The notes below the pieces were generated by a model. That model was not told the origin of the DNA. It was given only the letters and a program-made list of their open reading frames with translations, and did not search any database. Shown here one piece after another: positions 1 through 41,600 of a stretch of 64,000 bases of DNA; the stretch's first letter is position 1, and each line of letters starts with the position of its first letter. The DNA comes from Craspedostauros australis (taxonomy: Eukaryota), in the NCBI GenBank assembly GCA_030167865.1, contig JALAGF010003973.1, positions 1 to 64,000 on the forward strand, read 5' to 3'. A program made the position numbers and the translations under genes.

Positions 1-698
1 GACATGACAATTGCCTTGCACTTCTGTGGATTATTTAGAAACATGAAATTATATTTCGATAAATAGCATTACCGCACCTCCCAGCGACAGCACGCGCAGA
101 TCGTGTGGCGGGTCTCCGGTCGCCTTGAAGGCGCGCCCAGAATCTGGTTGCCGTCAACATGCAACGAATACCGCAAACAAAAGATACATGTGCGGCCTGA
201 TTTAATACCAGAAGAAGGGCGCAATGAACCATTATCGTATCAGGAGAACGCGTACAAACAACAAAGGACATAGTGTACCATTCGTTATATCATGACAGCA
301 TGCAGCAGAAGGTTCACCATCGTTCGCGTTTTATCACACGTTCCCCAATCCAACTCAGTTGATGTCACAATGGATCAGCTATTCCAAGTACACGGATCAG
401 CTTCAACGAACTGAAAACCGCTTTCGACGTTGTTTCTTCGCACGCACGTACGATGGCCAGTCGTTACTTGTGTTCAATGAAAATGAAAATGCGTCGAAGA
501 CATAATAGTTATATATATGTACTATCGCAGCTTCCAATGGCACCAAACGCAACAGGAACCCACAACACTGCACACAAACTCACAACACTGCACACGAACC
601 CGTCAATCCATCAAACAACGAAGTAATCAAGCCGACAAACTACCATCCAATCCATCCAGCACAAGCAGCACGAAACCACTCGCATTCAGCCACTCAAC

Positions 699-1496
699 AT
701 GAAGTTCCGTCCGTGCATTGACCTGCACAACGGCCAGGTGAAGCAGATCGTGGGATCGACGCTGGCGACCGAGGCAGGAAAGACTGCTGAGGATGCTGCC
801 CTCAGCACCAACTTCGAGACGGACCGGCCTGCCGCCGATTACGCCAAGATGTACCAGGACGACAAGCTGACGGGTGGTCACGTTATCATGCTGGGACCCG
901 GCAACAAGGACGCGGCCCGATCGGCCCTGCAGGCGTACCCCAATGGACTGCAGGTCGGCGGCGGCGTCAACAACACCAACGCCAAGGAGTGGCTCGACGC
1001 AGGCGCATCGCACATCATCGTCACGTCCCACGTCTTCTCCAATGGCCAGATCCACATGGAACGCCTCAAGGAGCTGGTCACCATCTGCGGGGGCAAGGAG
1101 AAGCTGGTGCTGGACCTGTCCTGCCGAAGGAAGCCGGAGGAACCGGAGGGCGACTACTACGTCGTGACCAACAAGTGGCAGACCTTCACCGATTACAAGG
1201 TGACGCCGCAGAATCTGGTGGAGCTCTCCAACTACTGCGACGAATTCTTGGTGCACGGCGTGGATGTGGAAGGCAAGCAATGCGGCATCTTGGAGGATCT
1301 CGTGGAGCTGCTCGGAAATCACAGCAGCGTGCCGGTGACCTACGCCGGAGGCGTGCGCTCCATCGAGGATCTGGAGCTCATCAAGAAGATCGGAAAGGGC
1401 AAGGTGGATGCCACCGTGGGAAGCGCTCTGGATTGCTTCGGCGGAAAGCTACCGTACAGCGACGTCGTGTCATGGCACAGCAAGGAGCAGCAATAG
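699..1496 (+). CDS. HIS6: Phosphoribosylformimino-5-aminoimidazole carboxamide ribotide isomerase (eukaryotic HIS6-type HisA)
   Basis: 265-aa ORF starting MKFRPCIDLHNGQVKQIVG, with GGHVIMLG, LQVGGG, EFLVHGVDVEGKQCG, TYAGG and TVGSALD motifs typical of HIS6. Confidence 0.95.
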   Translation: MKFRPCIDLHNGQVKQIVGSTLATEAGKTAEDAALSTNFETDRPAADYAKMYQDDKLTGGHVIMLGPGNKDAARSALQAYPNGLQVGGGVNNTNAKEWLDAGASHIIVTSHVFSNGQIHMERLKELVTICGGKEKLVLDLSCRRKPEEPEGDYYVVTNKWQTFTDYKVTPQNLVELSNYCDEFLVHGVDVEGKQCGILEDLVELLGNHSSVPVTYAGGVRSIEDLELIKKIGKGKVDATVGSALDCFGGKLPYSDVVSWHSKEQQ

Positions 1497-2108
1497 AAGT
1501 TGGAGCTATTGGTACATGTGCGGTGCGAGCATTGGAAGAGAATAGCACATGTGTACTGGAGTATGCTAGGATGGAGAAGAACTGGCCTATTTATGTTCTA
1601 TTCTGATCTGCACTTCATCAACAATATAATGGCTCGTATAATAGTAGCAAAGGATTCCATCATCGAGGACGCTCCGGAGAGAGTCTCTACACAGGAACAG
1701 TGAGAGTACGAACAGACAGAGTGAGCGAGAGAAAACAAGAAAAATGATGCCTTTCCTGTTTTGGCCGAGTGTCATTTGTGATGTCTTGTGGCCGACAATG
1801 ACGCTGACGTACTGTAGTCGAATTGGTCGAAAGTGGCCACATCGGCTCAATCACCTGACACGTGGAAGAACGAAACCCAAGTTGAACCTGTTTGCGGCTA
1901 CCTCATCAACGGTCATCGCTTGAGCAACGCACAAGCAACGCAAACAACACACCTCGCGCCTCACAAGTCAAGCAAACGAGTGAGGCCACAGCAACATCAC
2001 AAATCACAGAAGGAGCAGCCGCAGCATCGTCCCTCTATTCAACCAACAAGCAACAACCAATACAAGTATTCTATAATACTATCCAAAGAAGGAAGAAGAC
2101 TAGAAAAG

Positions 2109-3086
2109 ATGGCACGCGGAGCAGAGGGAAAATTGCGTCGTCGCAACCGAAAGGAGGAAGAGAAGGCGACAGCCAACAGCTTCTTCGCGGACGCCGGCGG
2201 ATTGGGTGCTGCCACCGGCAGCCATGACTTCGGACCAGCCGACATCCCGATGCCACCGGGCATGAGCGAGGCCAACGTCGAGGAGGACGACTCCGCCGAT
2301 GAGGCCCCTGCCGAGAACGAAACCGCGGAGGATGAAAATGACATGCTCGTCCCCAAGAAGAAGAAAAAGAAGAGCAAGAAGAAAAAGATGAACGACTGCT
2401 GCGACAAGGACCTCCCACGCACACCGCAGCCAAAGGGCATCAAGTCCACCCCGCTCATCCTGCTCATCATCATGACCGGCTCCACCCTGCTGCCGGCATT
2501 GATTTTCGCCAGCGACTACCTCGGGAACTTCATGCAGCGCAACCACGTGTTGGGACAGGTCGGCTTCCGCCTCGGCATGGGCTCCGTGCCACGCAAGCGC
2601 GTGCTCAGCTTTTACGAGAAGCACGATCCCTCCAAGCTCGAGGACGTGCCCAAGATCCTCTCCAAGCACTACGGCGACTACCCCCTCCTCGTCAAGAAGC
2701 TCGAGCGCAAGTACCACGACTACGGCTACTTTCTGGGCTGGGAGGAAGACGAGGCGCCCATCACCCTCGCCAAGGAGACATTGCAGGAAACGTATGACAT
2801 TTGGATCCAGCAGTACTGGAACAGATACGCCCCGCAGCCCCTCAAGACGGCAGCGCGCAACGTCCGGTACAACCTCACCTTCCTCCAAAAGCGCCTGCGC
2901 AAGGTCTGGAAAAAGACCGTGTGGCCCATTTTGGAGCCCATCTTTGGGGTTCCTGACGGTGCGGCAGCGCAGAAGCGCAAGGACGCCGCCGAGGCCAGGA
3001 AACGGAAGCAGGAGGCATCCCGCACCAGCGGTGGGGGAGGTGGTGGACGACGCCGCAACACCGACTTCCGAGACGACGAGGACTAA
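2109..3086 (+). CDS. Hypothetical membrane protein (acidic/Lys-rich N-terminus, one TM segment, helical FY..HDPSK..V..IL.K..G....L...LERKY domain)
   Basis: Coding-like C/G third-position bias starts at ATG 2109 (MARGAEGK), inside ORF 1833..3086. Hydrophobic stretch PLILLIIMTGSTLLPALIFA. Confidence 0.8.
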   Translation: MARGAEGKLRRRNRKEEEKATANSFFADAGGLGAATGSHDFGPADIPMPPGMSEANVEEDDSADEAPAENETAEDENDMLVPKKKKKKSKKKKMNDCCDKDLPRTPQPKGIKSTPLILLIIMTGSTLLPALIFASDYLGNFMQRNHVLGQVGFRLGMGSVPRKRVLSFYEKHDPSKLEDVPKILSKHYGDYPLLVKKLERKYHDYGYFLGWEEDEAPITLAKETLQETYDIWIQQYWNRYAPQPLKTAARNVRYNLTFLQKRLRKVWKKTVWPILEPIFGVPDGAAAQKRKDAAEARKRKQEASRTSGGGGGGRRRNTDFRDDED

Positions 3087-3490
3087 ACCAGAGGACAGTA
3101 GAGCACTCTGTGCATTGCAGCGAGAATGGTAATGGAAATAATGATAGTCCACTCGAATACATACGTGCAACTGCAAGTAGAACAGCAATGGCATGGTGCT
3201 TACATGACGCTGTCCGGGAGCACAGCACAGAATCCGCATCGTAATGTTTGGATCAATGTAGACCAACGTTGCGAATGTCTCGGAGTGATCAACTGCTTCT
3301 CGCTTCATCAGCGAACACGCTGTGTACACGTTTGTGGATGCTGCTTCCTAAACGAATAGAATAGTCATCCATGAGCGTGTCATGGGACCAAGTATTGTTG
3401 CCGTCGTTGAGGAAGAATGAAGTTGCTCGTCAATGTGCAAAAGGAAGCTTGCGTTGGACGAATTCGTAAGTTTGGACATATTTCACAGAT

Positions 3491-3501
3491 TATAAGCCCA
3501 A
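3491..3501 (+). promoter_or_regulatory. TATA-like element (TATAA) overlapping a degenerate A-box-like GCCCAA upstream of the permuted tRNA
   Basis: TATAAGCCCAA lies about 35 nt upstream of the tRNA 3' half, with a CAA at 3512-3514 where a Pol III start could lie. Confidence 0.4.
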
Positions 3502-3526
3502 GTATGACCTGCAACATCACTCAGCG

Positions 3527-3603
3527 ATCAGAAGATTCCGGGTTCGAATCCCGGGCAGGTTTCTGGTGACCTGTTGGCCCAACGGCAAGGCGTCTGACTA
3601 CGA
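3527..3603 (+). tRNA. tRNA-Arg(ACG): Circularly permuted tRNA-Arg(ACG): 3' half 3527-3562, spacer CTGGT 3563-3567, 5' half 3568-3603
   Basis: Swapping the halves gives a 72-nt cloverleaf: acceptor GACCTGT/GCAGGTT, D arm GCCC-AACGGCA-AGGC, anticodon stem TCTGA/TCAGA with loop CT-ACG-AA, variable loop AGATT, T arm CCGGG-TTCGAAT-CCCGG. Confidence 0.92.
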
Positions 3604-3607
3604 AGTA

Positions 3608-3615
3608 TTCTTTTT
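3608..3615 (+). terminator. RNA polymerase III terminator (TTCTTTTT)
   Basis: T5 run at 3611-3615, following a 7-nt trailer after the end of the tRNA 5' half. Confidence 0.7.
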
Positions 3616-4503
3616 GGTCCGTGCTGCGAGAAAACTGCGCCGTTGAAATGTGCTCATTTTTTGGATATGTCGTCAGTGTTGGAAGTGTTTGTAACAGGAT
3701 ACATCATCAGAGAGGCAACTCGAGGCCGTCCCTTGAATTGGAATGGAATGCTCTGGTCTTGTTTCATTGCTTTTCCATGCCTGTTTGTTGGCAATGGTGC
3801 ACTACACCTGCAATTACATGTGAGAAAGGACTCGAGGAGCCAGCTTTTCTTTCTTCGCCGCCGTCAATCATGGAAGGCCAGTCTGTTTCATACATTCCGG
3901 GGGGTTACAGCTGTGGCAGAGCTGCGGGTTGCTTCAAATCGGGATGGAAGGCCATTGAGTGGGACATTGAGTGGGAGACACCTTTCCTGTCACCACTGTG
4001 ATGTTCTAAGAGTGTCGTATCCAACTAGCGACCAGCGACAATATTTCTTCAAGAGGGTTGAGATCTCAGATTCTCACAGTTTCGTATGATCGCCAATGGG
4101 AGCCGATCAATAGCATCAATCCCTTCCGTATAACTCTGCTATATCCAATATTAACTCATCGAACATGGGATGCTCTCCATCCTGTCGTAACCTTCCCTCC
4201 AGTGGAATGTTGGTGTTGGAAGAGAACCCACGTTCGTGCGTTTTGTTTTGGATCCACGAGGTCTCACAGAATGCCAGAGAAGCCAAAAATGATGACGCCA
4301 ACAAGATAACACGATCGTCAGCCACCATCAACAGATCCATTCGCCGATGCAATCGCCGATCCGATCATCAGTCAAAAGTCACACACACACATAGCCAGCG
4401 AGAAAGCAACCAAGAAGCTCTCCCTTCCTCTTTGCTCATCCATTGCCAACCCAACCCAATCCCAACGCGATAGATCATGACAAGAATGACAAGATCCCCA
4501 ACC

Positions 4504-4968
4504 ATGATGAGGACCGCCACACTCTGCATGTCCATGCTGCTGCTCCTCGCATCCTGCAACGGCCTCTCTCCCAACATGCCCAAAACCACAAATGCCAACG
4601 CGGCATGCCAGACCCGACGCAACATCTTTGTGTCGGGCTTGACGTTCGCTGCGGCAGCCACATGCCTCCCCAGCGACGCCAACGCCGCCGTGGACTGCTT
4701 CAAGGACTGCCTCAAGAACTGCAAACTGATCGCGCCAAAGGACACAGCCTACTGCACCACGCAATGCACCGAGTACTGCAACCAGGACGATCGCAACGAC
4801 GGCCTCTCGGGCAGCGTCAGTTCCTCCGGCGGTGAGGTCGGCATCCTCGGTGGGACCTTCGGGCAAGGGACCGTGCCGAAGGGCGAGGACAAGCCACCGT
4901 CCTTCTCGATGCCAGGTTTGGACTTCTCCTCCGACAAGGGTCGCAAGCTGTTGGGCTACGGAAGCTAG
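4504..4968 (+). CDS. Probable plastid thylakoid-lumen Cys-rich protein
   Basis: Signal peptide (MMRTATLCMSMLLLLASCNG), then a twin-Arg lumen-type signal RRNIFVSGLTFAAAATCLPSDANA, then a CX3CX3C-X10-CX3CX3C motif. The start could be 4477, 4486 or 4504. Confidence 0.75.
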   Translation: MMRTATLCMSMLLLLASCNGLSPNMPKTTNANAACQTRRNIFVSGLTFAAAATCLPSDANAAVDCFKDCLKNCKLIAPKDTAYCTTQCTEYCNQDDRNDGLSGSVSSSGGEVGILGGTFGQGTVPKGEDKPPSFSMPGLDFSSDKGRKLLGYGS

Positions 4969-5536
4969 AGCGTCTCCATCCACACGCACAACACTCGTAC
5001 TTGAGGATTGGTATGTAGTCGTAGGTCGTACTAATAGACACCAGTTCACCACGTGCAGGCTCAGGTGATGATCGACAAGCGACAAGCTCTGGTGCTTTTG
5101 GCCCCATCAGTTCGTTGTGCGAGCACTGTGCAGAGCACACCCGCACGCTTCTACGCTACATACATGCTCCATACATGTGTAGTACTGGTACTGGTACGAG
5201 TGGCATACATTTATTGGATAGTTCTATTATACATAGTTATGCAATTCGGGAATGGTTCATGTTCTGTCGTTCATGTCCACCCTCGCCGTTGTTTATTCTT
5301 GCTCTTGTTGTCGCCTTGCTTCTGTTTTGCCTTTGCTTTCGCTTGCCTCTTGGAATGTGCTTCGTTCTATCTTCTCTTTGTGTTGTATTGGCGTTGGTCT
5401 TGATGCAGTTGTTGCTTTGGCGGGGTGCCATAGCATGGATGGAAGACGATACACAGTTATGAGGTGATGTACCCCCATGCAATGCATGCGACTCCATCTC
5501 TCTCTGTCTGTGTATTAGCATGGTATGCGCGCCTGT

Positions 5537-8500
5537 CTAAATGGTCTTGTAACCTTCGGCGATCTCGGCGCTGTTGGTCTGGAAGTCCGTCTCCATCGTC
5601 GTGACGTTGTTGATGGCGAACAGCAGCTTGCTCTTCAGGATTTCCTTGCTGGAGTACTTGGGTAACGCCAACGAGAAGAAGCAGGTGCTTGCGCTGGGAA
5701 GCGACACGTCCTTGTTCTCGCCTTGGGCCTTCACGTCTTCTTGGATCTTGAAAGGCGCATCGAAGTCGCCTTCCTTCTTTGGCAGCCGGTTACGAGCCCA
5801 CACGAACTGGAGGAAGAGCTTCTTCTCGTCGTTGCTCAGCTCTTCCAGAGTCTCCCAGAAGTACTGGATGGTAGGCTCGTCTCCCTTGTACCCTTCATAC
5901 TCCACGACGCGTCGGAGCAGATCCACATCCACCTCGTGGCTGCCGCAAATCACGTCTCGTAGCTCGCTGCCTGTGAACAGTGAGAGGAGTTCGACTGGGA
6001 TGACGTTGCACAAGCCCTCCACGAAGGCATTCAGCATGCGCTGTTGCCACCAGAGCAAGACTGGCCGTGAAGAATCGTCAGCCTGCTTGTTCGACAGCAG
6101 GTCGATCTCCTCCATGCACCTCTCCTTCGTCGTCTGCTCCTCGGTGATCGCTTTCCACACCGATTCCAACGGAAGGGGCAGATCGAGGGCAATGCCATGA
6201 CGGAATGCTGTTCCCACAATACGCCCAAGGAACACCAACGATTCCTCCACCTCTCTGACGGTCTCGTCTCGGACGGTCATGAGGCTGGAGAAAGCATCGC
6301 GGATGCGTCGTTCCGTGGCGGACACATCCTTCGTGTCTCCGTCGAGAACCTTGCCGTTGAGGGAGAACATGAACAGGTCCTGCTGATCGCCGACGCCTGT
6401 CACGTTGTTGGGAGTTGGATCGAACACTCCCAGCCAGCCGGATCCGTTCTCATCGCGCTGCTGCGTCTCGTGAATCGCGTCCGCGAAGGCCTCACGGTAA
6501 GGTCCTGAGTAATCATTCACACCTTCGCCGATCAGCTTCACCTTGAATGCTCTTCGCTGTCCTCCATGTCCCTTGGCAACGAAGCCTCGGCGGAGGGCAT
6601 TTCCACCCCACCCCTTCGTTTCGTTCTGCAGCTGTGAGAACACGCTGTACTTGCGTATCATGCCGCTGTTTGAACTGTTCATCACACGTCTTGCCTTCAG
6701 GCGGTTGAGACGGACGGTGCGAATCTCTCGCGGCAGTTCGTACTCATCGTGCGACAGCGGAGTTGGCGTGGCCGTGATGCTGGTCACTGAGCGGAGGAAT
6801 TCATTCTTCACGCTCGGGAGAATGAGCTCTCGGAACTGACGGATCTTACCGGCGATCGATGGCACAACCACCCAGTTGGCAGGGCTCGCAAGATGCCGGC
6901 TGCGTCCTGCACGATCAACCGGGGCGCCGGTTCCGCACAGCCCACCCAAGATACCTGTACCTTCCTGGCTTGGGCGGACAGGCATCCATGGCAGCGCGAC
7001 TCGGCAACGCTTGTTCAAGCAACGAATGATGGACAGCCTGGCCATGATGGCAGTGGCATGTGGGATCGGGGTGGCCAGCATACCAAGCGACTTCACGGCT
7101 GCCTCGTTGCAAGTAGAGTCACCGTCGCCTGACGGATCATCGGGTTGGCCCTGCTTTGTGCTGATGGCATGCTTGACCGCTGCGAGGACGATGTGGTATG
7201 GCGAATTGAGCGCATCACCCTCCTTCCAGCAGTCGCTGATCAGACTCAGCGCGTTGGCCAATATCGTGTCCGATTCCACGTCTCCCAGTCCACCGATCTT
7301 TCCATCTTCGATGAGTTTTTCAAATTCGGCTATGGTGGGGCCGGTGTCACCCTGGTCCATCCCCGCATCTCCGTGCGCTTGTTTGTACTTCTCGAACCAC
7401 TGCAGCGCACATTGGATTGGCGATTTGGGAAGCTCCTCGTCGTTCCTGGTTTCGCCGTCTGCGTCTGTTTTGACAGGGAGCACGATCGGCTCTTCCTTCC
7501 CTCCTCTGATTCTGCTGCTGATCCAACCTTCGCCGAGAGGTTCGTACCTCACGCGGTAACGGACCACTCCGCAAGAGTTGACGCGTCTTTCGAGGACGTC
7601 GCACTTGGGAATGACGGTGTTCACGGGGATCGTTCCGCGGTTGGCCGATCCCTCGAAGATCTCAAGGTCGGATCTGACGACCGCGCCGTTGGAGAAAACA
7701 ATCTTCAGCCCTCCAGGCGACACGCATCGGAATCGAGCCATGATCGGCAGCTCGATATCCCGAGCGCGATTGTGCTCGACGCTTGGGAGGCCGTCGACGA
7801 CCTCGCTTTCGTCAAAGTACCATGCGCGTCCACCGCCTTCGGTCAGACTACCACCTTCGCTCTTCTGCAATGCGATTCTGTAGTACAATCGGCCCTGGCA
7901 AGTTCCAAGTATGGTGGCCTCTTCGGCTAATTCGAGAACGCGGCCCGCGCTCCTCTTGAGATGGACTCTGTCACCTGGCAGCAGCGCATGGGGCAATCCC
8001 AGAAGTGCGCTGGCAGACGCACAGGCAAGCGGCGACCGGTCAAGTTCCACGTCAAGGCCGAAAGATGCCAGCTTGTAGGGTCCGCTGCCTCGTGTTTGGG
8101 AGTAGCATGTGGACGCCGACAACCACCTTCGGTAATCGGCAAATGCTTCTTCCACGAACCATCGCGGGAAGGCGATGCCCTTGCTGTCCTTCGGAATGGC
8201 ACTGGTACTGGTGCTGTCGTTGTTGTTGCTGCGACTGATGCGGCGTGGTATGCACTGCTTGTACAGAGACAGGACTTCGTCGGCAGCAAGGATGTTATCC
8301 ACGATGGCGCGCCCGTCGATGCCGTAGCTTGTGGACCACTTCGATGATATCGTCACCCTGTCACCCACGTTCCTGAGACCGATGACAGGCCAGAGCGCCT
8401 TCGGACGCACTGCGCCTTGTGCGGGGTACCGCCCGCTTCTTCCAATGTCAATTCCGCTTGGAGCGCCTTGCGCAGCACCGCCGCTGCCGCACCCATCAAC

Positions 8501-11500
8501 GTTGAAGCCAAATGGCGAGAGGTTTTCGAATGCACACCCGAGATCGTTCATGATGTGCTCTCCGTACTTCAGTCCATCGAAAAAGAAGGAGATCCTGCCT
8601 GTGTCACAATCCAGCAACACGCCAACCGTGTCGCCGCTGTGGCAATGGGCACCGTACACACGTTCTGCCCCTGCCGTGTAGGTCGCTCGGAAGTTGACGA
8701 AGCCCCACCCGTGCCATCGGTTGAGACGCGGTTGGCTTTCGTAGCCAAAGGAAGATCCAGACCCACCAGACCCGGATGGCTTCTCGGCAACACCGATGAA
8801 GACGCTGCCCGTGTCAGCTTGTTCGATCTTGACCTCCCAGTAGTGGACGCCCTTGGTGAAACCGACAGAGGCGAATGCGGTGCCTCGGCTGTCGGATGAA
8901 GTGCACGAGACTGTCCGCCCGTCCCTTGACAGGGACAGAGATGGTGCATGGAATGACCTGTCGAATCGGATCGGAGCAGCCGGTATCGTCTGAAGATCGG
9001 ACGCGACCTCGCCGATGCTCTTTGGATGTCGCAGCGATCGAGCGAGTTTCATCTCGCTGAGGACCTGGATCTTGCTGCCGCCACGTTCTCGGTTGCGCAG
9101 GTTCGGGACGACGTAGGTGTTGCCTCCCGCGAGGTCCTCGTACAGAGACTGGTGCGGCGAACGTGCATCAATCTCAGACTGCGAGCTTGTTCGATTGCTT
9201 GGTTTGAGAATGTAGGTCGTCCCAGCGACGAAGGATGGGTGCCCGAATCGTGCTTCCCACCCGGAGTCCCTTGCACCATACACCAGGTCTTGTTCCGTAA
9301 TGGAGAGGGAGCCATCGGCGTGGACAACGCATTGCACCTGAACCCCGGCACCAAAATCTGGCCACTCCAGAATACCGTGATGGACCGAATCCTCCTCCTT
9401 TTCCTCTTCCTTGCCAGATCTGGATGCTGCACGTGACAGTCGCAGAAGCACATTGTGACGCTTGGCGACGCCGAACCCGTGCCTGGATACGCATTGCTCG
9501 GAGCTTTCTGGCAGTGGGTGGCGCTTGCGAACGCGCGTTGCCTTGTCGTTGACTTCGACATGGCTGATGTCGTACCTTCCTCCATCTCCTCCATATCTGT
9601 ACACGCCTTCCTTGCCTGTCAGATGCCAACGGACACGACGCGCCATGCCCTCGACTCCATTCCACGGCTCGATTCCTATCACCGTACCAAGAGCGAGCTT
9701 CGGGTTTGGAATCCTCTTCTTCTTGTTCTTTTCCTTGCCCTTGCCTTCGGTTGTAGTTTCTGGAAGATCTGCTTGTGCCGAATCATCGGCGGGATCGGGG
9801 GTGTCGCTGGAGATCTGATTCGCATCATCTTTGGTTCCGTCATCGTTTCCGCTGCTCTTGTGCTCACCGGACTTGGTCCCCGCGCCATCATCGTCTCCGT
9901 CTTCAGAGTCTCCTTTCGTCTTGTCATCCGGATCTTCGCGAGCTGCCTTCTTCTCGTCGTCGTGCAGCTGTTTCTTTTGTTCTCCTCTCTTCACCTTCGC
10001 TGCTTCGTAGATGTCCTTGCCATCCTCTGTGCCGTTCTTGCCCGATTCCTCCCAGTCAAGCCCGCGCACCACAAGGCATCCCTCCCGGAGCATCGGCGGA
10101 CCGTCGCCGCCATCCATCAGGGTTCGGACTGCGGATCTGGAGGGCGTCTTCCAGTCGACGGCCTTGCACGAGACTGTCCCGGTCAGAATCTCAAATCCTG
10201 AGTCGCTCATGAGCCATCCGCCTTCCACTTCCCAGTGGTTGCTCTGGGCAACCCCTTCCTGTCTTGCTGGGGCGAGATATTGCATGGGGGTCGCGGCATC
10301 TACCTCTGCGGTGCGCCATGACTCCATGAAGCTCGCAGGGAATGTGGCCGGGTCAACCGCTCTGTGCACGACGGAGACGAGCTCGATCAATGCCTGCACG
10401 TATCTCGAGCAGACCGGCACTGCAGCACGCTCGGCCCAGACACGCCGGCTTACCGTATTCTTCAGTCTCCCGAAGTAACGGCCTAGTGTTGGCACCGATT
10501 CCACAACCTGCTTCAAGGCAGCAGGATGAGTGTTCAAGATCCCTGCAGCGGTGAATGCCGATATCATTCTCCATGGCAGCGAGGCTGATAGCAAACCGAT
10601 GCTCCAAGCTTCGAACAGTCCGGTCTTGATCTCATCGTGCGACTCGACGCCATTCTCCACTTGCGGACTCAGCAACAGACCCGAAAGCAACGAAATCAAC
10701 CGAGCATCGGGGAATGCCACAGTCTCCCTCGCATTTTTCTTGGATTCGCTCTTCTTCTTCGCAGCAGATGACTTGCGCTGTGACGAATCGCCCTTGTTGG
10801 CGTTTTCTGCTTCTTCGTCGTCGTTTTCTTCATCATCCTCATCATCTTCATCCCGAGGAGAATCTATCGATGCCGAATCGTCGCCGTCGTACTCAACCAC
10901 AGAGAGAAGGCGCACGCCTCTCCTCACCGCTGCAACGACAATGTTCCGGAACGTGGCAGATTTGCACACGGCACTTTGGATGCCATCTTGCAAAAATACC
11001 ATGATCCCGCTGCCTCCATCCGAACCGATGACAGCCTCTGCTGCTGCAGCGATTGTCGATCCCGTGTCCATGCCCTGGGGGATTTGTTGCCACTGCAAGA
11101 GACAGGTGAGGACTTGGACAGTGCCTCCCTTCGCAATGAGCACCCCGTCGTCCAGATCTCCGATGGAGGCCACTCCTGACTTGTCGGATCCGGAATGACG
11201 CGAGTGGCCATGCTCGTTGCTTGATATGCCCAAGCCGAGAGCTTCCGCTGCAAGTGCCATCGCCCCGGCCTCTCCAACCCAGCCGGTGGAGAGGAGGCTC
11301 GAGCTTGACTCAAGCAGCTCCCACAGCTTCAACGCACCATCCACGTCGCCTTCTGCGAAGCAGACGGAGGGGTCAAAGTCTTGACCAAGTGTCACAATGA
11401 TGTGGAGCACAAGTTTTTGAGCGAGCAGAGCGAGGAGAGCCTTGCTTTCTTTGTTGAGCTCCTCAACGATCTGCAACCCCACTGCGTCAAGTGATTTGCG

Positions 11501-14500
11501 CATCCTAGCATGCGGTGATGCCATCACTCCGTCCTCCTGATTCGCTTCTTCCGTCGACAGACCATCAAGCTTCGGTAGGTGGCTCTTCAGTCGACGACCG
11601 ACGCAGTTGGCAGGCGTCATGGTCCCGGTGGAGATGATGCTTGATGATTTCTGGCTGCCACTGGACTGCTTCGGACGCCCTGAACCAAGATGCACAGATG
11701 CGTCAGATCCATAATACCTGTGCGCCCATGCCATGAGCTCGTGGCCGTGTTCACCGTCGGAGAAATCGCAGAGGAAACGGTGGTCATCATCCTGGGCGAT
11801 CCCATCAAGGATCTGTTCCTTGCGGACAAGAGCGCTGCGTTCTTGGACTGAATCGAGGACAGCGTCTCCAACTCCACGGTACCCCTCTGGTGGCGGGTAC
11901 CTGAAGTGCTCATTGTCCTTGCCTCCGAGAATGAGACGAAGCTTTTCACGTTTGTTGAAACTCACGCATGCGTATACACCCCCGCACGGACGGAAACCCG
12001 TTCCCGAGAATGCAACACCCATGCCAATCTCTTCACCGCGTCCATTCAAGGTGAACGACATGGTCTTTTCATCCATGTCCACCAAGCAACCAACCACGTC
12101 GCCTTCCTTCCACCGGCAGCCCCATTCGGTTGCAGAAGAATGCCAACGGTACCGTCTCCACCCGTCGTATGCCCACGAACTTGGCCCATCGCCACAGCCG
12201 TCTCCCCTGTCGGCGTGGCAGTGGCCAGCAAAGCTACCATCCGCCCAGCCGATTTGCAAGCACCCAGCTGTCTCCAGAATGGCCTCATAGTACCACTTTC
12301 CTTTGGTCAGAAGGATTCCCTTGGTCCCAACGGACGAAAACCCACCAGACGGAAGGCCGGAAATGGCCAACGTCTTGGGATCAATGATGGATCTTCCGGA
12401 AATGAATCGCAACGGCGTGACTGATCCCTTCCAATGTGGCTTCATATCTGCCTTAGTGTCATCACTCTCTTCGCCAGCACTTGTCCTTTTGAGTTTCGGA
12501 TCGCATTTGTCGCTCTTGCTGTCATCATTTCCTTCAACGTTGGAGGCATCGACGTCGCTGCCTTCGTTCTGGCTGTTGTCATCGTCATCGTCATCCTCAT
12601 CTTCGTCGTCCTCTTCTTCTTCATCGTCGTCGTCGTCATCATCGTCGTCATCATCATCAGCGTCATCCTCATCTTCCATGGCCTCGTCTTCCGCAGTCAG
12701 GCGTTCGCCGTGGGTGAGGATCCATGTCAGTGCTTCGTCGACGTTGTTACCGTTTGCTGCCAATGCTTCAGCGCACCATCTGCTGGGGAATCCCATCTCG
12801 AGCAGTTGCTGGAGAAGATGGTTACTGGTTCCATCAGACCGTCCGCCGCGGCCTCTTCCGCCAGAACTTGATCTTCTCTGACTGGATCGCTCTCTGTCCC
12901 GTTCTTCCGCGAGAAGCCGATCCATGTCGCCACCATGTTCCAGACAGAAGTGTACCGCAGCCTCGATGTTGGTGCCGCCGGTGCGTCGAAGTGCAAGCTC
13001 CGACCACTGCCTTGGCAAACCAAGCTCTGCCATCTGCACAATAGCAGCTTCTCTCAGGTGTGCTGCGGCGGCTGCGGCGACCTCGCTCTCATCTTCGTCG
13101 CTGTTTTCGCTTCCCGCCGTCGATTGGGAGATGCCACGAGGCTCATCGCCACGCCCAGCATCGGCATTGCCTCTGCTGCTCGTGCTTGAGGTTTGCGGCG
13201 GCGTTCTGAGCCTTCCACCCTCGGAATCATTGTGCCCGTCTCCGCCAGAGTTCTGGTTGTTGGACTCAGCATGAGCGTCGGCAGCGTTCGCTGATGTCAG
13301 CTTGCCACGAAGTTCTGCAATTCTTGACTCCCACTCAGAAGACGCCACGTCGTCCAGAGTTGATATGCGGAGTGAGAGTTCATTAAGGAGAGAAAGGAGA
13401 TGTGTGCACCGCGCCTCCAAAAGATTGATTGAGGATAAGAAAACGCCAACGTTGTTCCCGTCAGGTGTGTGCAGCGGTTTCTGGCATGAGAGATTCAGAA
13501 GCTGCGAGAGGCATTTTCTGGATTCTTCTCGCTTGATGAAAGCTTCCAGATTGCGCTTGTCTGCGAGGAGTGTCATGGCTGCTCTCAGCGCCAACGTTGC
13601 GGCGCAGCATCGAGTCGTCTTTGATGTTTCATCGGCCAACGACAGATCTTCCTTTGACTCATCGCTTTTGGCGTCGGTACTCTTTTCGTCAACGTCCTTC
13701 TCTTCCGCGCATCCCGTTGCGTCGATGGGGGGTTGGATTCTCTGCAGCGTCCGCGTCAGGATCAATGTCTGCAGCTCCCCGTTCTCAGCTGGCTCGTTGA
13801 CGACGACAGGAACCTCTTGTACTTGGACGACATCGCCCAGCGGGCACCGCAATGCCCTGACTGTGAGCGCGTTGCGACTGCTCTTGCGATTCTTCGGCTG
13901 CTTTCCGAGGACGGCTTCGCTCGATTCCGCGTCCGTGTTTGCGCCGACGTCCGTATCTTGTTGACGGGAGAGGAGGACAACTTCGCAAAGACCGTTCTTG
14001 ACGTCGACGCTGCTGACAATACCGGCTGATGAATCGTCTCGACAAAGTCCTGCGATCACTCCCTCAGTGCCGTTCCCGACTACATGGTGTGGGACATTTC
14101 CCACTGACGAGCTGTTGCCGCCGGAACTGTGCCCCTTTATGCCCAGGGCCGACTGCTGATCCGAGGCGACGGCAGCAGCGGTGGGCGGTTTCATCAGAAC
14201 GTACGAACCGCACCGAATCTGATCCAGACCGCCGTTGAGGAAGGCAAGGATGCCAATCTCGGACACCGTGGCGTCCGCAGTGTCGGGCTGTGCATCTCTG
14301 AAAACGTCGAAGATGACACGATTCAGCTCGGCTCTCCAGGCCAAGTTGCCTGGTCTGTGCAAGCGACGCAACAGCGAGACGATCTCATTCCTCACCACCT
14401 GCTCTTCATTCCCGAAAGGGTTTTTGGCAAGGAGGATGGATGCTGAACCTGCCGCTTCAAACAATCCCATGAGGAGGGCATTGTCAGGATCGAGTTCTTC

Positions 14501-17500
14501 CACGATCGGAAGCACCATGCGGACAAGCCTACTCCTGTGGCGTGCAGGGAGAAGCCCTTGCGGGGAGCTTGCGACGTCGTACGCCAGAATTCTGGACGTG
14601 CCGTTCGAATCTTGAACTGGGCTCAGCCCGATTCCCTCCAGCAAGAGATGGAGCCATTCTGGACGTTCGCTGATGTACTTCGGAGCGAGCTTATCATTCG
14701 ACACCATCGACAGCATGTTGAGGATGTTGCCCATGTATTTGTTCGCAAAGCTATGCTCGGACCGACCAACGGCATCCCTCGTGGTCTTGGACGATGACGA
14801 TCTCGAGTTCTTCGTCGATGGCCTTTGGGATGTCGTCGGACTTTGTCCGTTCGAGAAAATACTCCAGCTTTCGATGTGCCGGAGCCCAGCCCCGAAACTC
14901 TTCGATGCACCCTCTGCAGTTTTTCGAGATGCCGATGAAGTCTTCCTGTCACCAGCATCCACCGAGTCGACTACGCTGGTCCATGTCGAAGTCTCTTGCT
15001 TTTTACAGTGCTCCGAGATCATGGTCTTCGTGATGTCGCGCAGAATCGGGAACGTTCGTTGGCATTCATTGTAGAGGAAGGATGTCGCTTCTTCGAACGA
15101 CCGCCCGGATGTGTTGGTTGCATTGGACAGGATTTGCGAGTGGAGGACATGAGCTGCGGTAACGGAGGATTTGAGGATGACCCGCGAGAGATCTCTTTGG
15201 CAGAGATGATCGAGGTGGTGCAAAGGATTGTCGCCGTCCGCGATCTCATCCACGGCTGCATCTTCGAATTGCACCGATCTGATAGCGGGCTCGTGCGTTG
15301 CAATGAGATTTGAGAGCCTCTTCAAGATGTCGCTTTGCGAAGCGATGGCATCTACATCGGCCGGGTACAGAGTTGTGATGAAGGAGCTGAGCACCGACAT
15401 GGTGAGCGAGTCCCATGATGCTCTATCTTGCAGCATTGCAGTCGTGATTCTTCCTGAAAGCAAATGTCCAAGGATTTCTCCAAGTTCGTAAAAGATTTTG
15501 ATCACCGCTTTGCGCAGAGACCTTCGGACAGAGGACTGGGCCCCGGACAAGGAGGAGAGGTAATGCCTGCCGACAGACCCGCCTGATGCCGTTGACTTTG
15601 GCTCGGATCCCCTCTTCAGCCCGTTGCCGTCTCTGCCAAGAATCCTTGGGATGTACACGATCATGGCTTCGAGGGAGACTGCGGAGGCTGGGCTTTGGTT
15701 CGTTCCAAGCTCTGACAGCATCTGGGTTGCTTGGGATGCCGCTACGTACTTGAGGATGCATCTCGTTGCTGACCTTTTGAACAGCAGTTTGATCCACTCC
15801 AGGTCCTCAGCAGAGTTTACCGTCTTGTAGAAAGCCTTTATGTCCGTTGTCATCATGGTCACGGAGGTCGAATCATCGTCATCGACCTCAAGACCCAGCA
15901 AGAAGAGCGACGTGTTGTTGACAAGGGAGCATACCGCCTTGCATTGATCACGGCGGCTCTGAGATTTGTGTTGGCTGATCGCGCTTCGTACACCATTCTC
16001 CATCACAAATAGTGCAGCCTGCCACACGTCAATGAGACGGATCGGAGCATCTTTCGGAGTTCCTCCTAACAGATTCCTCAGATTGCCCAACTTGACCATG
16101 GCGCAGATGATGTTGATTCTGGCCTCATTGTACTCCTGTGGGGCAAGCATGCGTAGCGAACCAGAACCGCCAGCTTGTGGGGCGATGTCGGGATCCATCT
16201 TGCGCACGGCTTCGGAAATCCAAGCGTTGATTTCACGAGTACGTTGGGGTTCAGAGGACTTGCTTGGTTCGGCTTCTTGCAAGGCATCGAGACGGAGCAG
16301 CTTCATCCAGTCTTCGTCATCCTGCTGCGACACGGTGGTTGGGGGTCGGAAGTCGCTCTGCAGAGACTCCATGATTGCATCATTGCCTTCCCAGTCCGAT
16401 GGTATGGAAAGCTTGGACATGAAGGCGCTATCGAGGCATTCTTGCAACACCGTCGTTCTCTTCGACCACTCGCTGGATGAAAAGAGGGTTTTCTCTGGCT
16501 TCGGCGAGGTCTCTGCGTCCCAGCCTTCGGAATCGCCGATCATGGCGACCAAATGGCCGTAGCTTTGGCAGAGTACCGCCATGTCGGTGAGTGTCCAGTT
16601 TGTGGTGGAAGCCACCGCGGGTTCGTCTATGGATTTGCTTGCGCGTGGGGACCAGTATCCTGATATCTGACCTTGGGTTCCGAACTGGACATTCTTGTAC
16701 ACTCCTTCGAATTTGGTGCCATCCAGGCTGGATCTGGCCGTGACAACGCACGATGATGAGATGTCGTCGTCTTGTGCCGAACTTCCTGACTGGGCCGATG
16801 TGTTGCCGGCCTCGGACCATTCTTCGACGAACGTTACCATGGAGCCTCGGGTTGTGCCCATGATTGATACCAGCCCATTTTTGGATTTGCCAGTAGTTCC
16901 AACGCCGCTACCTTGGAAGCCAAGCGTGCATGTGCCGTCGGGACCTGACCTTGAGCGCGAAATGTCCACGACGTATTCCTCGGCGTCAGTCGTTGTTCCT
17001 GATGATCCTGTGGCTCGGATGATCCATTGGCCTTCTCGGATGTTGCAGAGGGAAAGGTGCTGACCCTCTTCCTTCATGTCTTTGCATGCCTGATTCAGAA
17101 CGAGGATGCACTTCGCAATCCGAGGCAACAGCACGAGCGCTGTGCGTTTGGAGAGGTTTGGAATCCATGATGGGATGAGGCTCAACGTCGCCCCGAGCGA
17201 TGGTAGCAGTTGTGTTGTGTGAAGGTCGTCAAACTTCTTGGCCTTCACAGTCCGAACAACTTCCTCCAGCAAGTCACAGACGTACTGTGTGCCATCCCAG
17301 CTGAGGTGGTTGTTGATATCCCGAACAGCCTTCAAGCCGGAGCCATCTGCCTCATCTGCTGATGAGGTTGGGTAGAAGCAGCTGCCTCCGGATCCATCGA
17401 AGACCATTTCTCGTGTTGTCGATCTCCCCCTGCTCTCCACGGTTAGCAGGGTGACGCGGTCGTCACGCTGGTAGAGCCCCACGGCTGGGTAAAGCTTGGA

Positions 17501-20500
17501 GTCGAGAGGGAGCCCTTCGAATGCTACACCCCAATCCTCCATGGTGCCTGACGGTGTGCCTGGACGACGCGGTGACGTTGGGGTCTGCAGCAGAGGGTCG
17601 ATGGAGAACGACGAATTCGATGAACTGTCCTTCCACGACGTGAAGCTCAGTGTGCCCACATCAGTATCAAGCGTCACGATGATCGTCGATCCAGTTCGGA
17701 AGGTGGCACCGTAGTCGCCGCGGATCTTCTTTCTGTCATGCCACAATGCCTGCGTGCCGATCATTCCCCAGCCGAACTTGTCACCCCCGACGTACGTCTT
17801 GATGTTGGCTTGTGCGGTGGACACGCCGACGAAGACGTGCCCGCGTTCGCATTTGTCGAGACGCACTGCCCATCGATGGACGCCGGTCTTCGGACTGTAC
17901 GAATTGGCTGACAGGACAGCGCCCCAGGCCTTCGAGGCCCGTTGATGTGCGGATGCACCGTTCGGTCCAATGTCCAATCCATCTGCGAAGATGGCTATGG
18001 AATCGGCGCATTTTGTTGCATCGAACTGCAACACATTCGAGCTCTTCGAGCTCACGCGAATGATGTCGTTTTGTGACGAGTTTGGAGTGATGGCGTTGTC
18101 ATCATTCTCACTGTCTCCGCCCCAAAGGCCATCCCACAGAAGGAGACGGACATGGCATCGATGGCAGATCGCCATGTACAGATCGCGAAGTTCTGAAGCG
18201 CCCTCAGCGGCAAAGACAGGCGAAGCTCGGATGGAACGAACGATATCGCTGACGAAGGTCGGGTTGCCATCTCTGCCGGTGACTATTTGCGCTTGTGTGA
18301 CGTGCTCAAGAGTGTCATTTGCATTGCTCGGCGAGTGACATGCTGGACGCGGAATGATGTGATCAAGCAAGTCGCTCACTCTGAGCCGGCGACAAAGCAC
18401 CTGGAGCCGATGGAAGGACACTTCGGCACTTGTCGTGGGCAGCGCTTTCAGTTCATCGATATGGCAAGACGTGCTGCTCTCGTCTGCGTTGGAGCATTCG
18501 TCAAGGTATGTGCGCAGGAGGGCGACTTGGGATGCCCTTGAGGGATGCGACATGGGGACGAACTCGCCCCAAACTTGAAGGGCCTTTCTGTACAAATCGA
18601 GACTGACTGGCGCCAGATCTCCTGCGTGCGCGCTGCTGTGAGCGGCTCTGGGTGTCGTGCCTTGCATCAACGAGGTTAGCGCAGCTGCGATTTTCATCGT
18701 AAAAGACGGGGGCAGCTTTCCCGATTGCATCTCCAATGTTCGAGTTTTGTCGCTCAAGCACGAGCGTGCATTGGCGTGGAACCAGTGCTGCAAACTTGTC
18801 AACACCATGATGCATGACTGGGATAGCATTTTCAGATGCTGCTCCCAGCCTTCGCAACGACGTCTCAATGTCTTGGCAAGGGTTGCGGCATCATGCGCGG
18901 CGGCGGCAGCCTTGCGGCTCATGCCCTTTGCCTCCAGGGTAGAAGCGTCGTTCGAGTCGGATGCGTCATCGAGGTATTCCAATGCCTTGGCAAGTGCTGG
19001 ATCTTCCTCCTCCACAAGCAGCCCTGCCTTGTCGTCGGTGTGGTCGGACAGTTGGTTTTCGCTCGATACGGCGCTCTCCTGTTGGAGGGCCTTGTGGTAT
19101 TGTTCCGATGCTGCATCGCGTTGCTCGACAAGGACGATGATGAGGGACAGAAGGAGGTGAAAGGAGACATGGTTCTCCTCGTCGTCTTGGCCGCTGTTGG
19201 GTTTCTCGGACTTCGTTACCATCCCTGTGGGAGGGAAGAGCGCGCAGCCGAGACCTCCTGTGATTGAGTCGGGCTGTTTGACATCCTTCCCCCGCTTTCC
19301 GGACGCTCGTTCCTCATTCTGCTGTTGCCGACTTTGCTGGCGTTGCAGCTGCTTGCTTGTCAGCATTTTGATGAACTTGAGAAGCTGGATGAGCACCTGT
19401 GGTGCAGGCAGTGCACCGAACTTGTCCAACGCCGATGGGTCCAGGTACTTCTTAGATAGGGCTGCGTTGCGATCCTCTTCTTCGCCGCCATACTCGGCAG
19501 GTCGAGCCAAATCGCCACTTGGTATCAGTGGAGCGTATGGGTAGCTGCCAGGAGGTTGTGGTAGAGGGGGCAACGCCAGGTCGATGTCGTCTGATTCGAC
19601 ACCGGCCGGATTGGGACCATCGGCTGTAGCAGAGTCGGCAGTGGGTGTGATTGGACCCGTGCTTCCTTCGCTGATCAAAGACTCTCGGCTGTTTTGCACT
19701 TCGACTTCGACGGATGGGTTGGAAATCTCGACCAAACTCATAGCCAGGGCTTGTCGCAGGGCATCGCTGTCATCGTCGTTGCTGTCGCCATCGCCAGCGC
19801 TGCGAGTACCAGCGCTTCGAGTGGCGTCATTGGAGCCATTGTTCCTCGCTTGCTCGTTCTGCTCTTCGTTGTCAATGTCGTCGTCGTCCTCATCATCGGC
19901 GTCATCGACATCATCGGAGGGTGCGGCGTTTTCATTCGTGGCTTGTTGATCGTTGTTGCTCTCAGAGGATGAAGAAGATGATGAGGAAGATGAATCTGCA
20001 TTGTTGTTGCGACCTCCCAGCCCGAGATTGAGCAGCCCACTGTTCCGGACTACTTCCACAAAGTCATGTTCGGCCGCTGGGCCATCGTTGTCGTCACTGT
20101 CGTCGCTGTCATCCGACGAAGAATCGTCGTCATCATCGTCCAGGTCATCGTCGTCGTCGTCGTCTGAGGAATCCATATTGACTGTCGTTCCTCCGATGAT
20201 CTGTTGAAGGAGTGCTGCGCTGACTGCTGCGGCAATGTCTATGTCATCATCGTCGTCGTCCATGCCATCCATGTGATCGAAGTCATCGTCATCGTCATCG
20301 TCATCATCGTCGTCTGCATTGATGTTGTTGGTACCGCCAATTCTGTTGTCATCTGGGACGATCGCCGTCGCGACTGCAGTGCCTGCGTCAGCCCTGCGCG
20401 ATGTCACCAAGGAGTCTGAGAACAGCTGGAATGCTGGTGTTAGAGGCGAGGAGTGTTCACTGCTCTCCTGCTCCTTTCGGCGCTTTTCCAGAAGTCGTTC

Positions 20501-38630: not shown

Positions 38631-41600
38631 ATGAGCGTCGTCGGAGTAGACTTGGGTTTGCAGAACTCCCTCATCGCGGCCGCCGGTCGTGGTGGAGTGG
38701 ATGTCATCCTCAATGGTAACTCGCAGCGTCTCAATCCGTAAGTCCTATACCATGCCATACACCACTCTATACCACTTGTGCATATGATACTCCACGATAC
38801 GCGGCGATATCCGTTCAATGTGATCCAACCAGCATGGGAGCTGCGATACCTCCCTCGTCAGCGCGTCGTGAACAATCGATTGCGTATGCTCTGATGCGTT
38901 GTGTGGTGGCAGCAGCTGCCCCCGCGCTTCGAGAAAGGCTTTGGATAATTGACCTGTTTTTGGAACATCGTGACCGTCTGCGCACTATTCATCACACCAC
39001 CGCTCACCACTCCTCGCTTTCAAACTTTTAAATCAATCCAATCTCCTTCTGAATGACACACATGCCTGTACGGCCAAGCATGTACACGGACGCTTCCATA
39101 CCCACCATCCTTCAACAATGCTACTCCGCTACTGACGACGACAATGGGAATGTCCGGCGCTGTGACAATTTGGGAAAACATTTGTTGACGATGCGGATTT
39201 TGGAAATCATCCAACGGTCTCAAATCGATGGCACGTTCATCCATCACTCTCCGCCAATCGATCAATCGATCAATGGATACACCAACGATGGGCTGTGGCG
39301 ACGATTCAAACCATCTTGTCAATCAATTCACCTCAATCCAACCCAACCAAATGAACGAATGGATGAATGAATGAAATGATGAACCAATTCATCCAAACGG
39401 AAATGCAATCGGTATCATCATGTGGTCCCAACAACCCATTGCTGCCAACCACCACCAACAACAAATGCGATCATGGCCGTACTTTCTCATTCCGTCATGT
39501 TATGCTGTATCACAATTGTGCACGAGCAGATCCATGGTTGCATTCGGAGACGCACGAAAGGTGGGAGAGCAGGCCGCCATGAGCGCCTCCTCCAACTACA
39601 AAAACACAATCAAGCACATGAAGCGACTTGTGGGTCTGGCATTTGATGATCCACGCGCGCAGGAGGAGCTCAAGACAGTTCCATTCACCTGCGTTCCCGT
39701 CGAGCACAAGCTCGGAGGCCCAGCCTCCGTCGGAGTCAAGGTCACGTACAACCACGAGGAGACCGTCGTTCCAGTCGAGGCCGTCTGCGGTATGATGCTT
39801 CACCACATGGGAATTATCGCGGCCGAGAAGGCGGCAGCAACCGCGGGCACCACCGACGCCAAATCCGTCAAGGAGCTCTTCCCGCAGGACTGGGTCATCG
39901 CCATCCCATCCTACTACAACGACGCCCAGCGACGGGCCCTGCTCAGCGGCTGCGAAATTGCTGGAATCACCGGCGTGCAGAGACTCATGCACGAGAGCAC
40001 AGCCACCGCGCTGGCCTACGGAATCTTCAAGGACATCCGCAAGGAATTTACCAAGGAGGACCCAACCAACGTCATGTTCATCGACATGGGCGCATCCGCC
40101 TACACCGTCTCCATCGCCGCATTCGAGCCAGGCAAGCTCTCCGTCAAGTCCTGCCATTGCGATGCCTACTTGGGAGGTCGTGATTTCGACAAGGTCATCT
40201 CGGAGAGCGTCGCCGCCAAGTTCGTGGAGAAGTACTCCAAGAAGCTCTCTGGCAACCCAATGGAGCGCCCAAAGGTCGTGCTCAAGATCTACAAGGCCGC
40301 CGAGAAGGCCAAGAAGACGCTTTCGCCGCAGGGAGTCAAGGAGGCTTCCATCAACCTCGAATGCTTGATGGACGACCTCGATTTCAACACCAAGGTCACA
40401 TCCTCGGAGTACGAGAAGCTGTGCGAACCATTGCTCGCCAGACTCGAAGCACCCGTCAAGGCAGCCTTGGCTGAGGCCAAATTGAGCGCGAGCGACCTGT
40501 CTTCCGTCGAGATCGTCGGAGGATCCACCCGTATCGGATGCGTCAAGAGAAAGCTGCAGGAGATTTTGGGAACCACCCTCTCCACCACCATGAACGCCGA
40601 CGAGGCCGTGGCCCGCGGAGCCGCCTTGCAGTCCGCCATCCTCTCTCCACGATTCAAGGTCCTTCCATACGAAATCGTCGAGTGCCAGCCAACACCAGTT
40701 AAGCTGGCCTGGGAGGAAGACGAAGCGGAGAAGGCCGCCGCCAAGAGCGAGGGATCTGGCGAGCCAACCAACTCGGTCATCATGTTCGACCGCGGCCTCA
40801 ACTTCCCCATCGTCAGACGCGTCACGCTCCGTCGAAAGGGAGCATTCACCGTCAAGGCGAGCTACGATGATGGCGCCACAGCATTCGGCATGCCCGCCAG
40901 CGCCCCAAGAGATATCGTCTCCTTCGACATCAAGGCACCGACGGATGAGGCCAAGAAGGTCCGCGTCAACGTCAAGCAGGACATCCACGGCATCATCAGC
41001 CTCAGCTCCGCGCAGATGGTTGAGGAGATCGAGGAGGAGGCCAAGCCAGCAGAGGCAGGCAAGGAAGAGGCCAAGGCCCCCGAAGGCGAGAAGCCAGCGG
41101 AAGAGAAGAAAAAGGTCAAGGTCAAGAGAACGAACCTCGAATACACCCTCACCAGACCAATGGACTGGAGCCAGGAGGAGATGACCAAGGCAAACGAGCA
41201 GGAAGTTGCCATGGCCAACAATGATAGAGTCGTCAAGGAAACCGCCGACATGCGCAACGAGCTGGAGTCGTACATCTACGACATGCGTGACAAGATCTCG
41301 TCGGAATCCCAGCTGGGAGGCTACGCCACATCCGCAGAGAAGGAGGCCTTCCTCGCCAAGAACACCGAGATTGAGAACTGGCTGTACGAAGATGGATTCG
41401 ATGCCACCAAGAAGGTTTACGCAGAGAAGCTCGGCGAGCTGAAGGCTCTGGGTGGCCCATCCGAGATGCGTGCTTCGGAGGCCAAGGCCCGCCCAGCAGC
41501 CACCACGGCGCTGCAGCAGAACATCGAGAAGTACAAGACGTGGTTCTCAAACGCTCAGGGTGACGAGAAGTACGCCCACATCACCGATGAGGAGTTCACC

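Follow-up and report, generated by a model that had tools for sequence, protein, structure and literature searches.

A probable circularly permuted tRNA-Arg(ACG) gene with a degenerate bulge-helix-bulge junction in nuclear DNA of a diatom-like alga

Anatomy of the locus

Near one end of the window, by which we mean the whole 64-kb stretch of DNA analysed here, the two halves of a tRNA gene lie on one strand in permuted order: the 3' half comes first, followed by a 5-nt spacer and then the 5' half, which is the order of a type II permuted gene. The parts of the gene and its flanking elements are set out below, with leader positions numbered backward from the base before position 38 (-1) and trailer positions forward from the base after position 37 (+1).

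3491-3495, + strand: TATA-like box TATAA, read from the sequence, 36 nt before position 38
3516-3526, + strand: 5' leader of the precursor, ending at G3526 (-1)
3519-3520, + strand: leader strand of the outer helix h' (A3519 = -8, C3520 = -7), pairing with T3606 and G3605
3521-3524, + strand: leader strand of the central helix H (-6 to -3); A3523:U33 and G3524:C32 pair, T3521 and C3522 are mismatched
3525-3527, + strand: 3-nt bulge with the 3' cut site (C, G, then A38); geometry from sequence, cut predicted from conservation
3527-3562, + strand: tRNA 3' half (positions 38-73), from ARAGORN on the rejoined halves and helix counts; anticodon-stem 3' strand, variable loop, T arm, acceptor 3' strand and discriminator T
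3563-3567, + strand: spacer CTGGT, between the mature 3' and 5' ends
3568-3603, + strand: tRNA 5' half (positions 1-37), from ARAGORN on the rejoined halves; acceptor 5' strand, D arm with C20, anticodon-stem 5' strand, then C32 U33 A34 C35 G36 A37
3602-3604, + strand: 3-nt bulge with the 5' cut site (G36, A37, then A+1), in the family register; cut predicted
3604-3615, + strand: 3' trailer AGTATTC (3604-3610), then a T5 run (3611-3615)
3605-3606, + strand: trailer strand of the outer helix h' (G+2, T+3), in the family register

By this numbering C32 is 3598, U33 is 3599, A37 is A3603 and A38 is A3527. A script that rejoined 3568-3603 to 3527-3562 by their coordinates gave a sequence that ARAGORN called tRNA-Arg(ACG), with a canonical cloverleaf and a sense anticodon; on the raw window, neither ARAGORN nor Rfam gave any match. 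The 64-kb window was also scanned for permuted tRNAs by running ARAGORN on 130-nt segments duplicated head to tail, and this recovered Arg in four of the five overlapping segments at the locus, with the break after position 37, the fifth segment being called Ala(agc). No further credible permuted tRNA emerged from the duplicated-segment scan of the 64 kb; a call of Val(GAC) near 39226-39355 was rejected as a false positive with poor stems and a length of 92 nt. We read 3527-3603 as a working circularly permuted (37/38-type) nuclear tRNA-Arg(ACG) gene of a diatom-like alga, and would put the probability of this at about 0.7.

The window is nuclear eukaryotic DNA, carrying an Hsp110-type gene, a RING-finger gene and an intronless frame of 5408 codons, the last of which runs uninterrupted through 5537-21763 on the minus strand and adjoins the tRNA locus. 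Among the best 120 matches of the Hsp110 protein, all those with a named organism are pennate diatoms at 60-67% identity (Pseudo-nitzschia, Cylindrotheca, Nitzschia, Seminavis and Bacillariaceae), while the top match overall is a transcript, 75% identical. Diatom nuclear tRNA-Arg is described as having C20 or U20 (Igloi 2022, PMC8975779), which the C20 read in the window tRNA fits.

The motif TGACCTG at 3505-3511 recurs at 3567-3573, where it takes in the acceptor 5' strand and the T preceding it. The upstream copy lies 21 nt upstream of the 3' half, probably upstream of the transcription start, and when 3505-3615 is folded without constraint it pairs with the acceptor 3' strand. The repeat is absent in 28 of 28 relatives (see below), and the idea that it is a relic of tandem duplication was dropped in favour of chance.

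Relatives in metagenomes

Metagenomes were scanned for a pattern in which the 5' strand of the anticodon stem, together with the anticodon, comes 45-75 nt after the 3' strand of that stem. The scan yielded 41 matches at 38 loci, nine of them chance matches without a T arm and 32 of them permuted Arg(ACG) genes, 28 of which are distinct. Together with the window gene these make a family of 29, every member of which rejoins to a 72-nt tRNA-Arg(ACG). Seven different acceptor 5' strands occur among the 29 genes, each matched by its own 3' strand; pairing is complete (100%) in the acceptor, T and anticodon helices and stands at 75% in the D helix, and the acceptor and T helices contain changes on both sides of pairs. 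Spacers in the family range from 4 to 20 nt, that of one relative (L010) being identical to the spacer in the window, and the window gene differs from L010 at 1 base over 76.

In blastn and tblastx comparisons of window 1-6000 with the 38 loci, the match was to the tRNA alone; because their flanks share nothing with the window beyond the tRNA, the relatives are not copies of one locus. The family genes are nonetheless related, falling by eye into about 22 leader/trailer groups, so the counts given for the family overstate independence. As to the taxon of the relatives, an ORF in the flank of one locus (L033) has 26 homologs, of which the one that is named is a Chaetoceros transcript at 56% identity; this may be a hint at most. 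Three loci (L020, L023 and L035) carry two permuted Arg(ACG) genes each, in tandem and about 130-520 nt apart, and L007 contains a second, partial look-alike of the permuted gene at 162-229.

Leader, trailer and transcription signals

A promoter-like element stands upstream of the gene and a T run downstream, and neither is found in the spacer; promoter function is here a prediction. The TATAA at 3491-3495 is likely a Pol III upstream promoter element, and the T5 run at 3611-3615 likely a Pol III terminator. Both have counterparts in the family: the AT content of the 29 genes reaches its maximum, 0.83-0.90, at -42 and from -39 to -36, and 28 of them have a run of at least four T that begins between +4 and +27, the sequence of the 29th locus being cut off. 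Phaeodactylum tRNA genes are described as having an AT-rich region at -30 to -40 (PlantRNA 2012).

The leader would start at about 3513-3519, judging from the distance to the TATA box and from a recurrent (C)ATCA motif of the family, about -14 to -10. Its segment 3518-3526 reads CACTCAGCG and is followed by A3527 (position 38). We estimate that the precursor probably measures some 100 nt, of which the leader would take up roughly 8-13 nt and the trailer 7 nt plus U's. In three relatives (L005, L019 and L027) the T run begins at +4, and the U's of the terminator join the outer helix with A's of the leader.

Junction geometry in the window gene

The sequence-only reading of this stretch had described the leader and trailer as a relaxed, intron-like splice substrate rather than a strict bulge-helix-bulge (BHB), and every letter and coordinate on which it built (G3524, ACT at 3519-3521, AGT at 3604-3606, and CGA at 3525-3527 and 3601-3603) is correct. 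For a break at 37/38, the strict BHB register has positions 32-35 paired with leader -3 to -6 and +2 onward paired with -7 onward, leaving (-2, -1, 38) and (36, 37, +1) as bulges. G3524 does lie three nucleotides before position 38, where it can pair with C32, and A3523 can pair with U33, whereas A34 and C3522, like C35 and T3521, are unable to pair. Two of the four central positions (C32:G3524 and U33:A3523) can thus pair in the window, and the 4-bp central helix of a strict BHB is incomplete, as had been claimed. The pair C3598:G3524 is a proximal anticodon-intron pair that closes the 3-nt bulge, as in an anticodon-intron substrate. Ordinary eukaryotic introns have a purine three nucleotides ahead of the 3' splice site that pairs with a pyrimidine at position 32, and the same is seen here.

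Both 3-nt bulges of a strict BHB are present in the window, with helices on either side (the anticodon stem and a 2-bp h'). Together with the family comparison given below, this makes the window junction a degenerate BHB whose anticodon-intron pair is conserved. The contrast drawn earlier between a relaxed substrate and a BHB consequently holds for the weak helix and not for the spacing, because the family keeps that of a BHB, with a 3-nt 5' bulge made of 36, 37 and +1 and a helix from +2. The pairing proposed between leader ACT and trailer AGT divides in a similar way: C3520:G3605 and A3519:T3606 fall on an outer helix that covaries across the family, but T3521:A3604 would place +1 in a helix, off the family register.

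Junction rules across the family

Conservation bears first on where the halves meet. The base before T39 is A in all 29 genes, and in all 29 a purine (23 G, 6 A) follows G36. By contrast, the leader base at -1 is variable (C9 T9 A5 G6), as is trailer +1 (A20 T8 C1). Because positions 37 and 38 are conserved, whereas -1 and +1 vary, we assign them to the 5' and 3' halves, respectively, and the comparison favours a junction at 37/38 with A rather than G at position 37. The CGA shared by the two sides had been thought to leave the exact junction ambiguous; this does not survive the family comparison, and the two readings would give different products, one with A37 and one with G37. With a join at 36/37 instead, position 37 would be filled by G3526 of the leader, the base that most of the family has there, and -1 is indeed G in the window, L038 and L035b. 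However, given the composition of -1, such a join would often put a pyrimidine at 37, although the 5' half already supplies a purine after G36 in every gene. The six A37 genes have G at -1 in three cases, A in one and C in two, and the ARAGORN break falls after position 37. We give a 36/37 join hardly any chance and proceed with the junction at 37/38.

A check of G3524 conservation, set in advance, bore out the importance that had been attached to this base, with one qualification as to its place: 18 of the 29 genes, the window gene among them, have a G able to pair with C32 at -3 (class A), and the remaining 11 have it at -4 (class B). Of the 18 class A genes, 14 have A at -4. Two or three of the four central pairs form in this class, never all four (0/18); the pattern of the window, with pairs at 32 and 33 followed by two mismatches, is that of 10 class A genes. 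Class B leaders (L001, L008, L010, L011, L015, L016, L025, L028, L031, L032 and L034) carry GTAG or GTGG, which pairs with all of C32-C35 and leaves a 4-nt 3' bulge. One of them, L016, has an otherwise perfect hBHBh' with a 5-bp outer helix. A strict 3-4-3 bulge-helix-bulge occurs in none of the 29 genes, and the class B geometry, with G at -4 and a 4-nt bulge, is a variant that the canonical rule does not predict.

Since only the position of the G was used to assign class, the outer helix provides an independent test of the register. In 17 of the 18 class A genes and in all 11 of class B, the leader base next to the H strand on its 5' side forms a pair with trailer +2, five pair types being seen in each class, and the next pair outward (-8:+3 in the window) can form in 14/18 and 6/11, respectively. 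The contiguous outer run averages 2.5 bp in the BHB register, against 0.2-0.4 bp when the register is shifted by -1 to +3, and when trailers were reassigned among loci, none of 5000 reassignments reached the observed run. Like the gene anatomy, the conservation of the G, the covariation of the outer helix and the failure of any family member to form a strict BHB are read directly from the DNA. They suggest a family junction in which the spacing, the outer helix and the pair proximal to the 3' site are conserved and the rest of the central helix is dispensable. It is important to note that the key C32:G pair shows conservation only and no covariation, because C32 is invariant, and the conservation of the G could have another cause.

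The comparison also bears on whether the window copy might be a decaying or poorly processed paralog, with the working tRNA supplied by another gene. Its A37, in place of the usual G37, its central helix, the weakest in the family, and its outer helix of 2 bp, compared with up to 5 bp elsewhere, might be taken as signs of decay. Yet all four stems are intact and match the family consensus, the gene is a single base away from L010, and both the TATA box and the T5 run are in place. Moreover, the nearest relative to share both the AGCGA leader end and A37, L038, has an outer helix of 5 bp, and the window's central pattern is a common one in class A. Decay is in our judgement very unlikely, and we retain the reading of a working gene.

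Energetics of leader and trailer pairing

Folding with the cloverleaf constrained had been suggested as a check on the proposed pairing, and on energy the pairing proves negligible. With the cloverleaf enforced, leader and trailer contribute -1.2 kcal/mol, compared with a mean of -1.42 for shuffled leaders and trailers, and 45% of 200 shuffles do as well as the window; ViennaRNA, moreover, pairs G3524 with C35 and not with C32. An unconstrained fold of 3516-3614 has a z of 0.04. Across the family, 2 of 28 loci beat 95% of their own shuffles, with a mean z of -0.56, so that these energy tests do not separate real leaders and trailers from shuffled ones. Pairing in the window gene taken alone is no better than chance, and it rises above chance only across the 29 homologous genes.

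These figures are an argument for supposing that leader/trailer pairing plays no part at all: the mature body alone would position the endonuclease, any single-stranded ends would serve, and G3524 and the outer pairs would be kept for some other reason or by descent. Eukaryotic enzymes are in addition described as tolerating relaxed sequence around splice sites (PMC10485636). Against this, none of the 29 genes lacks the G at -3 or -4, whereas the leader positions around it vary freely, and the +2 pair is present in 28 of 29, in five pair types and only in the BHB register; descent alone does not give changes on both sides of a pair. We consider it unlikely that the pairing is without a role, and continue to regard the junction as a degenerate BHB whose spacing and proximal pair matter.

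The leader segment TCAGCG (3521-3526) repeats the TCAG of the anticodon-stem 3' strand, and in the minimum-energy fold of 3516-3614 it pairs with the anticodon-stem 5' strand and displaces the 3' strand. Such a fold, as modelled, is a possible competitor in the precursor.

Comparison with known permuted and intron-containing tRNAs

The degenerate-BHB reading agrees with the published picture of eukaryotic substrates, in which the proximal anticodon-intron pair is the only one that is conserved and critical, the mature body serving as a ruler (2023 JBC review, PMC10485636), and with the 37/38 junctions of green-algal permuted tRNAs, described as hBH motifs that suit the eukaryal enzyme (Soma 2014, PMC3978253). 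The suggestion made earlier for the window, that an ordinary ruler-type eukaryotic endonuclease may suffice, restates a view already published for 37/38-type permuted tRNAs (Soma 2014, PMC3978253) and is not new. As described in the same review (PMC10485636), ordinary eukaryotic 37/38 introns have their 3' site in a 3-nt bulge, an anticodon-intron helix that may be imperfect and a mature body that serves as ruler, all of which apply here. They join two exons of a linear RNA, however, whereas the 'intron' of the window consists of the two ends of a transcript, and its excision and ligation would close a circle. Compared with the strict archaeal hBHBh', the window has the same two 3-nt bulges set four positions apart, flanking helices, and predicted cuts after the second base of each bulge, but the archaeal motif needs four central pairs, where the window has two and no family gene meets 3-4-3.

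The closest known counterparts are the type II (37/38) genes of Ostreococcus, Micromonas and the nucleomorph of Bigelowiella natans (Maruyama et al. 2010, via PMC3978253), which share the order of the halves, a short spacer and a junction in the anticodon loop, predicted at 37/38 in the window gene, and which likewise have a relaxed BHB (hBH), an AT-rich region upstream and a T run downstream (PMC3978253). The present genes differ from them in showing two junction forms among 29 genes, either a central helix of 2-3 bp with a 3-nt bulge or one of 4 bp with a 4-nt bulge. Like the window gene, those of Cyanidioschyzon merolae that are permuted (Soma et al. 2007, via PMC3978253) have a TATA-like box upstream, a T stretch, a signal-free spacer and a proposed maturation through a circular RNA. 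Their junctions fall at 20/21, 37/38, 50/51 and 59/60 with varied BHB types, implying an unusually tolerant enzyme, while all of those described here are placed at the canonical 37/38.

Permuted tRNA genes have been listed only from one red alga, a few green algae, a nucleomorph and one archaeon (Soma 2014, PMC3978253), to which a 2026 EMBO J review and a 2025 Auxenochlorella preprint add only green and red algae. The window departs from the list of 34 genes in Soma 2014 (PMC3978253) both in its host, which matches diatoms, and in its isoacceptor, Arg(ACG), neither of which the list contains. Full-text searches of the literature brought up no permuted tRNA from diatoms or other stramenopiles and none for Arg(ACG). 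The host lineage and the isoacceptor are possibly new.

It is plausible, as the sequence-only reading proposed, that BHB-based search tools overlook genes like this one. Going further, we tentatively raise, as rather less probable than its negation, the idea that the permuted layout is the standard and perhaps the only form of the tRNA-Arg(ACG) gene across diatoms and allied algae, overlooked by annotation pipelines, with its junction kept off a strict BHB in two ways, one of which (a 4-bp helix, a 4-nt 3' bulge and the C32 partner at -4) would be a substrate geometry that the texts consulted do not describe for the eukaryotic splicing endonuclease. If an essential tRNA-Arg is indeed conserved in permuted form in diatoms, the phenomenon would extend to an ecologically dominant and genetically tractable group, and standard tRNA annotation of diatom genomes would be without a required isoacceptor. 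The 29 junction variants would then form a natural series suggesting that the endonuclease needs a partner for C32 and the bulge spacing, not a perfect central helix.

A proposed route to the mature tRNA

The limits of transcription, the cuts, the ligation and the circular intermediate are modelled on Cyanidioschyzon, green algae and work on nucleomorphs. We hypothesize that the TATAA at 3491 directs Pol III to a start that probably lies about 8-13 nt ahead of A3527, and that transcription ends within the T5 run (3611-3615). In the resulting precursor of about 100 nt, the short leader and trailer would lie on the anticodon loop with BHB spacing, giving in order the anticodon stem, a bulge of C3525, G3526 and A38, the four central positions, a bulge of G36, A37 and A3604, and the outer helix. 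The tRNA splicing endonuclease, placed by the ruler of the mature tRNA body and by the anticodon-intron pair C32:G(-3), would cut after A37 and before A38. A perfect central helix would be unneeded. A tRNA ligase would then join A37 to A38 to form a circular intermediate, from which RNase P and tRNase Z would remove the CTGGT spacer, opening the acceptor stem for the addition of CCA. Homologs of Trl1-type ligase have been reported in diatoms (PMC4090602).

The order of these events is not fixed by the sequence, and the spacer is just 5 nt long and flanked by a normal acceptor stem. One could thus imagine a route with no circle, in which RNase P and tRNase Z cut out the spacer first, the halves stay paired, and the endonuclease and ligase act on a nicked substrate of two pieces. 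Circular intermediates have, however, been shown for the permuted tRNAs of C. merolae and the B. natans nucleomorph (Soma 2014, PMC3978253), and we hold the nicked route to be highly improbable beside maturation through a circle.

Among the sequencing runs matched to the window stretch, the best has a share of 0.06. Four runs, X5 (an RNA library), X1, X4 and X14, have one or two contigs each over 3527-3602; these are relatives' genes in genomic order, with leaders like that of L010 and no joints, and the window organism is in none of the runs. A 170-nt contig of X5 holds a relative's gene in unprocessed order and extends 86 nt past position 36, beyond a T run; it could be read-through, a precursor or carry-over of DNA.
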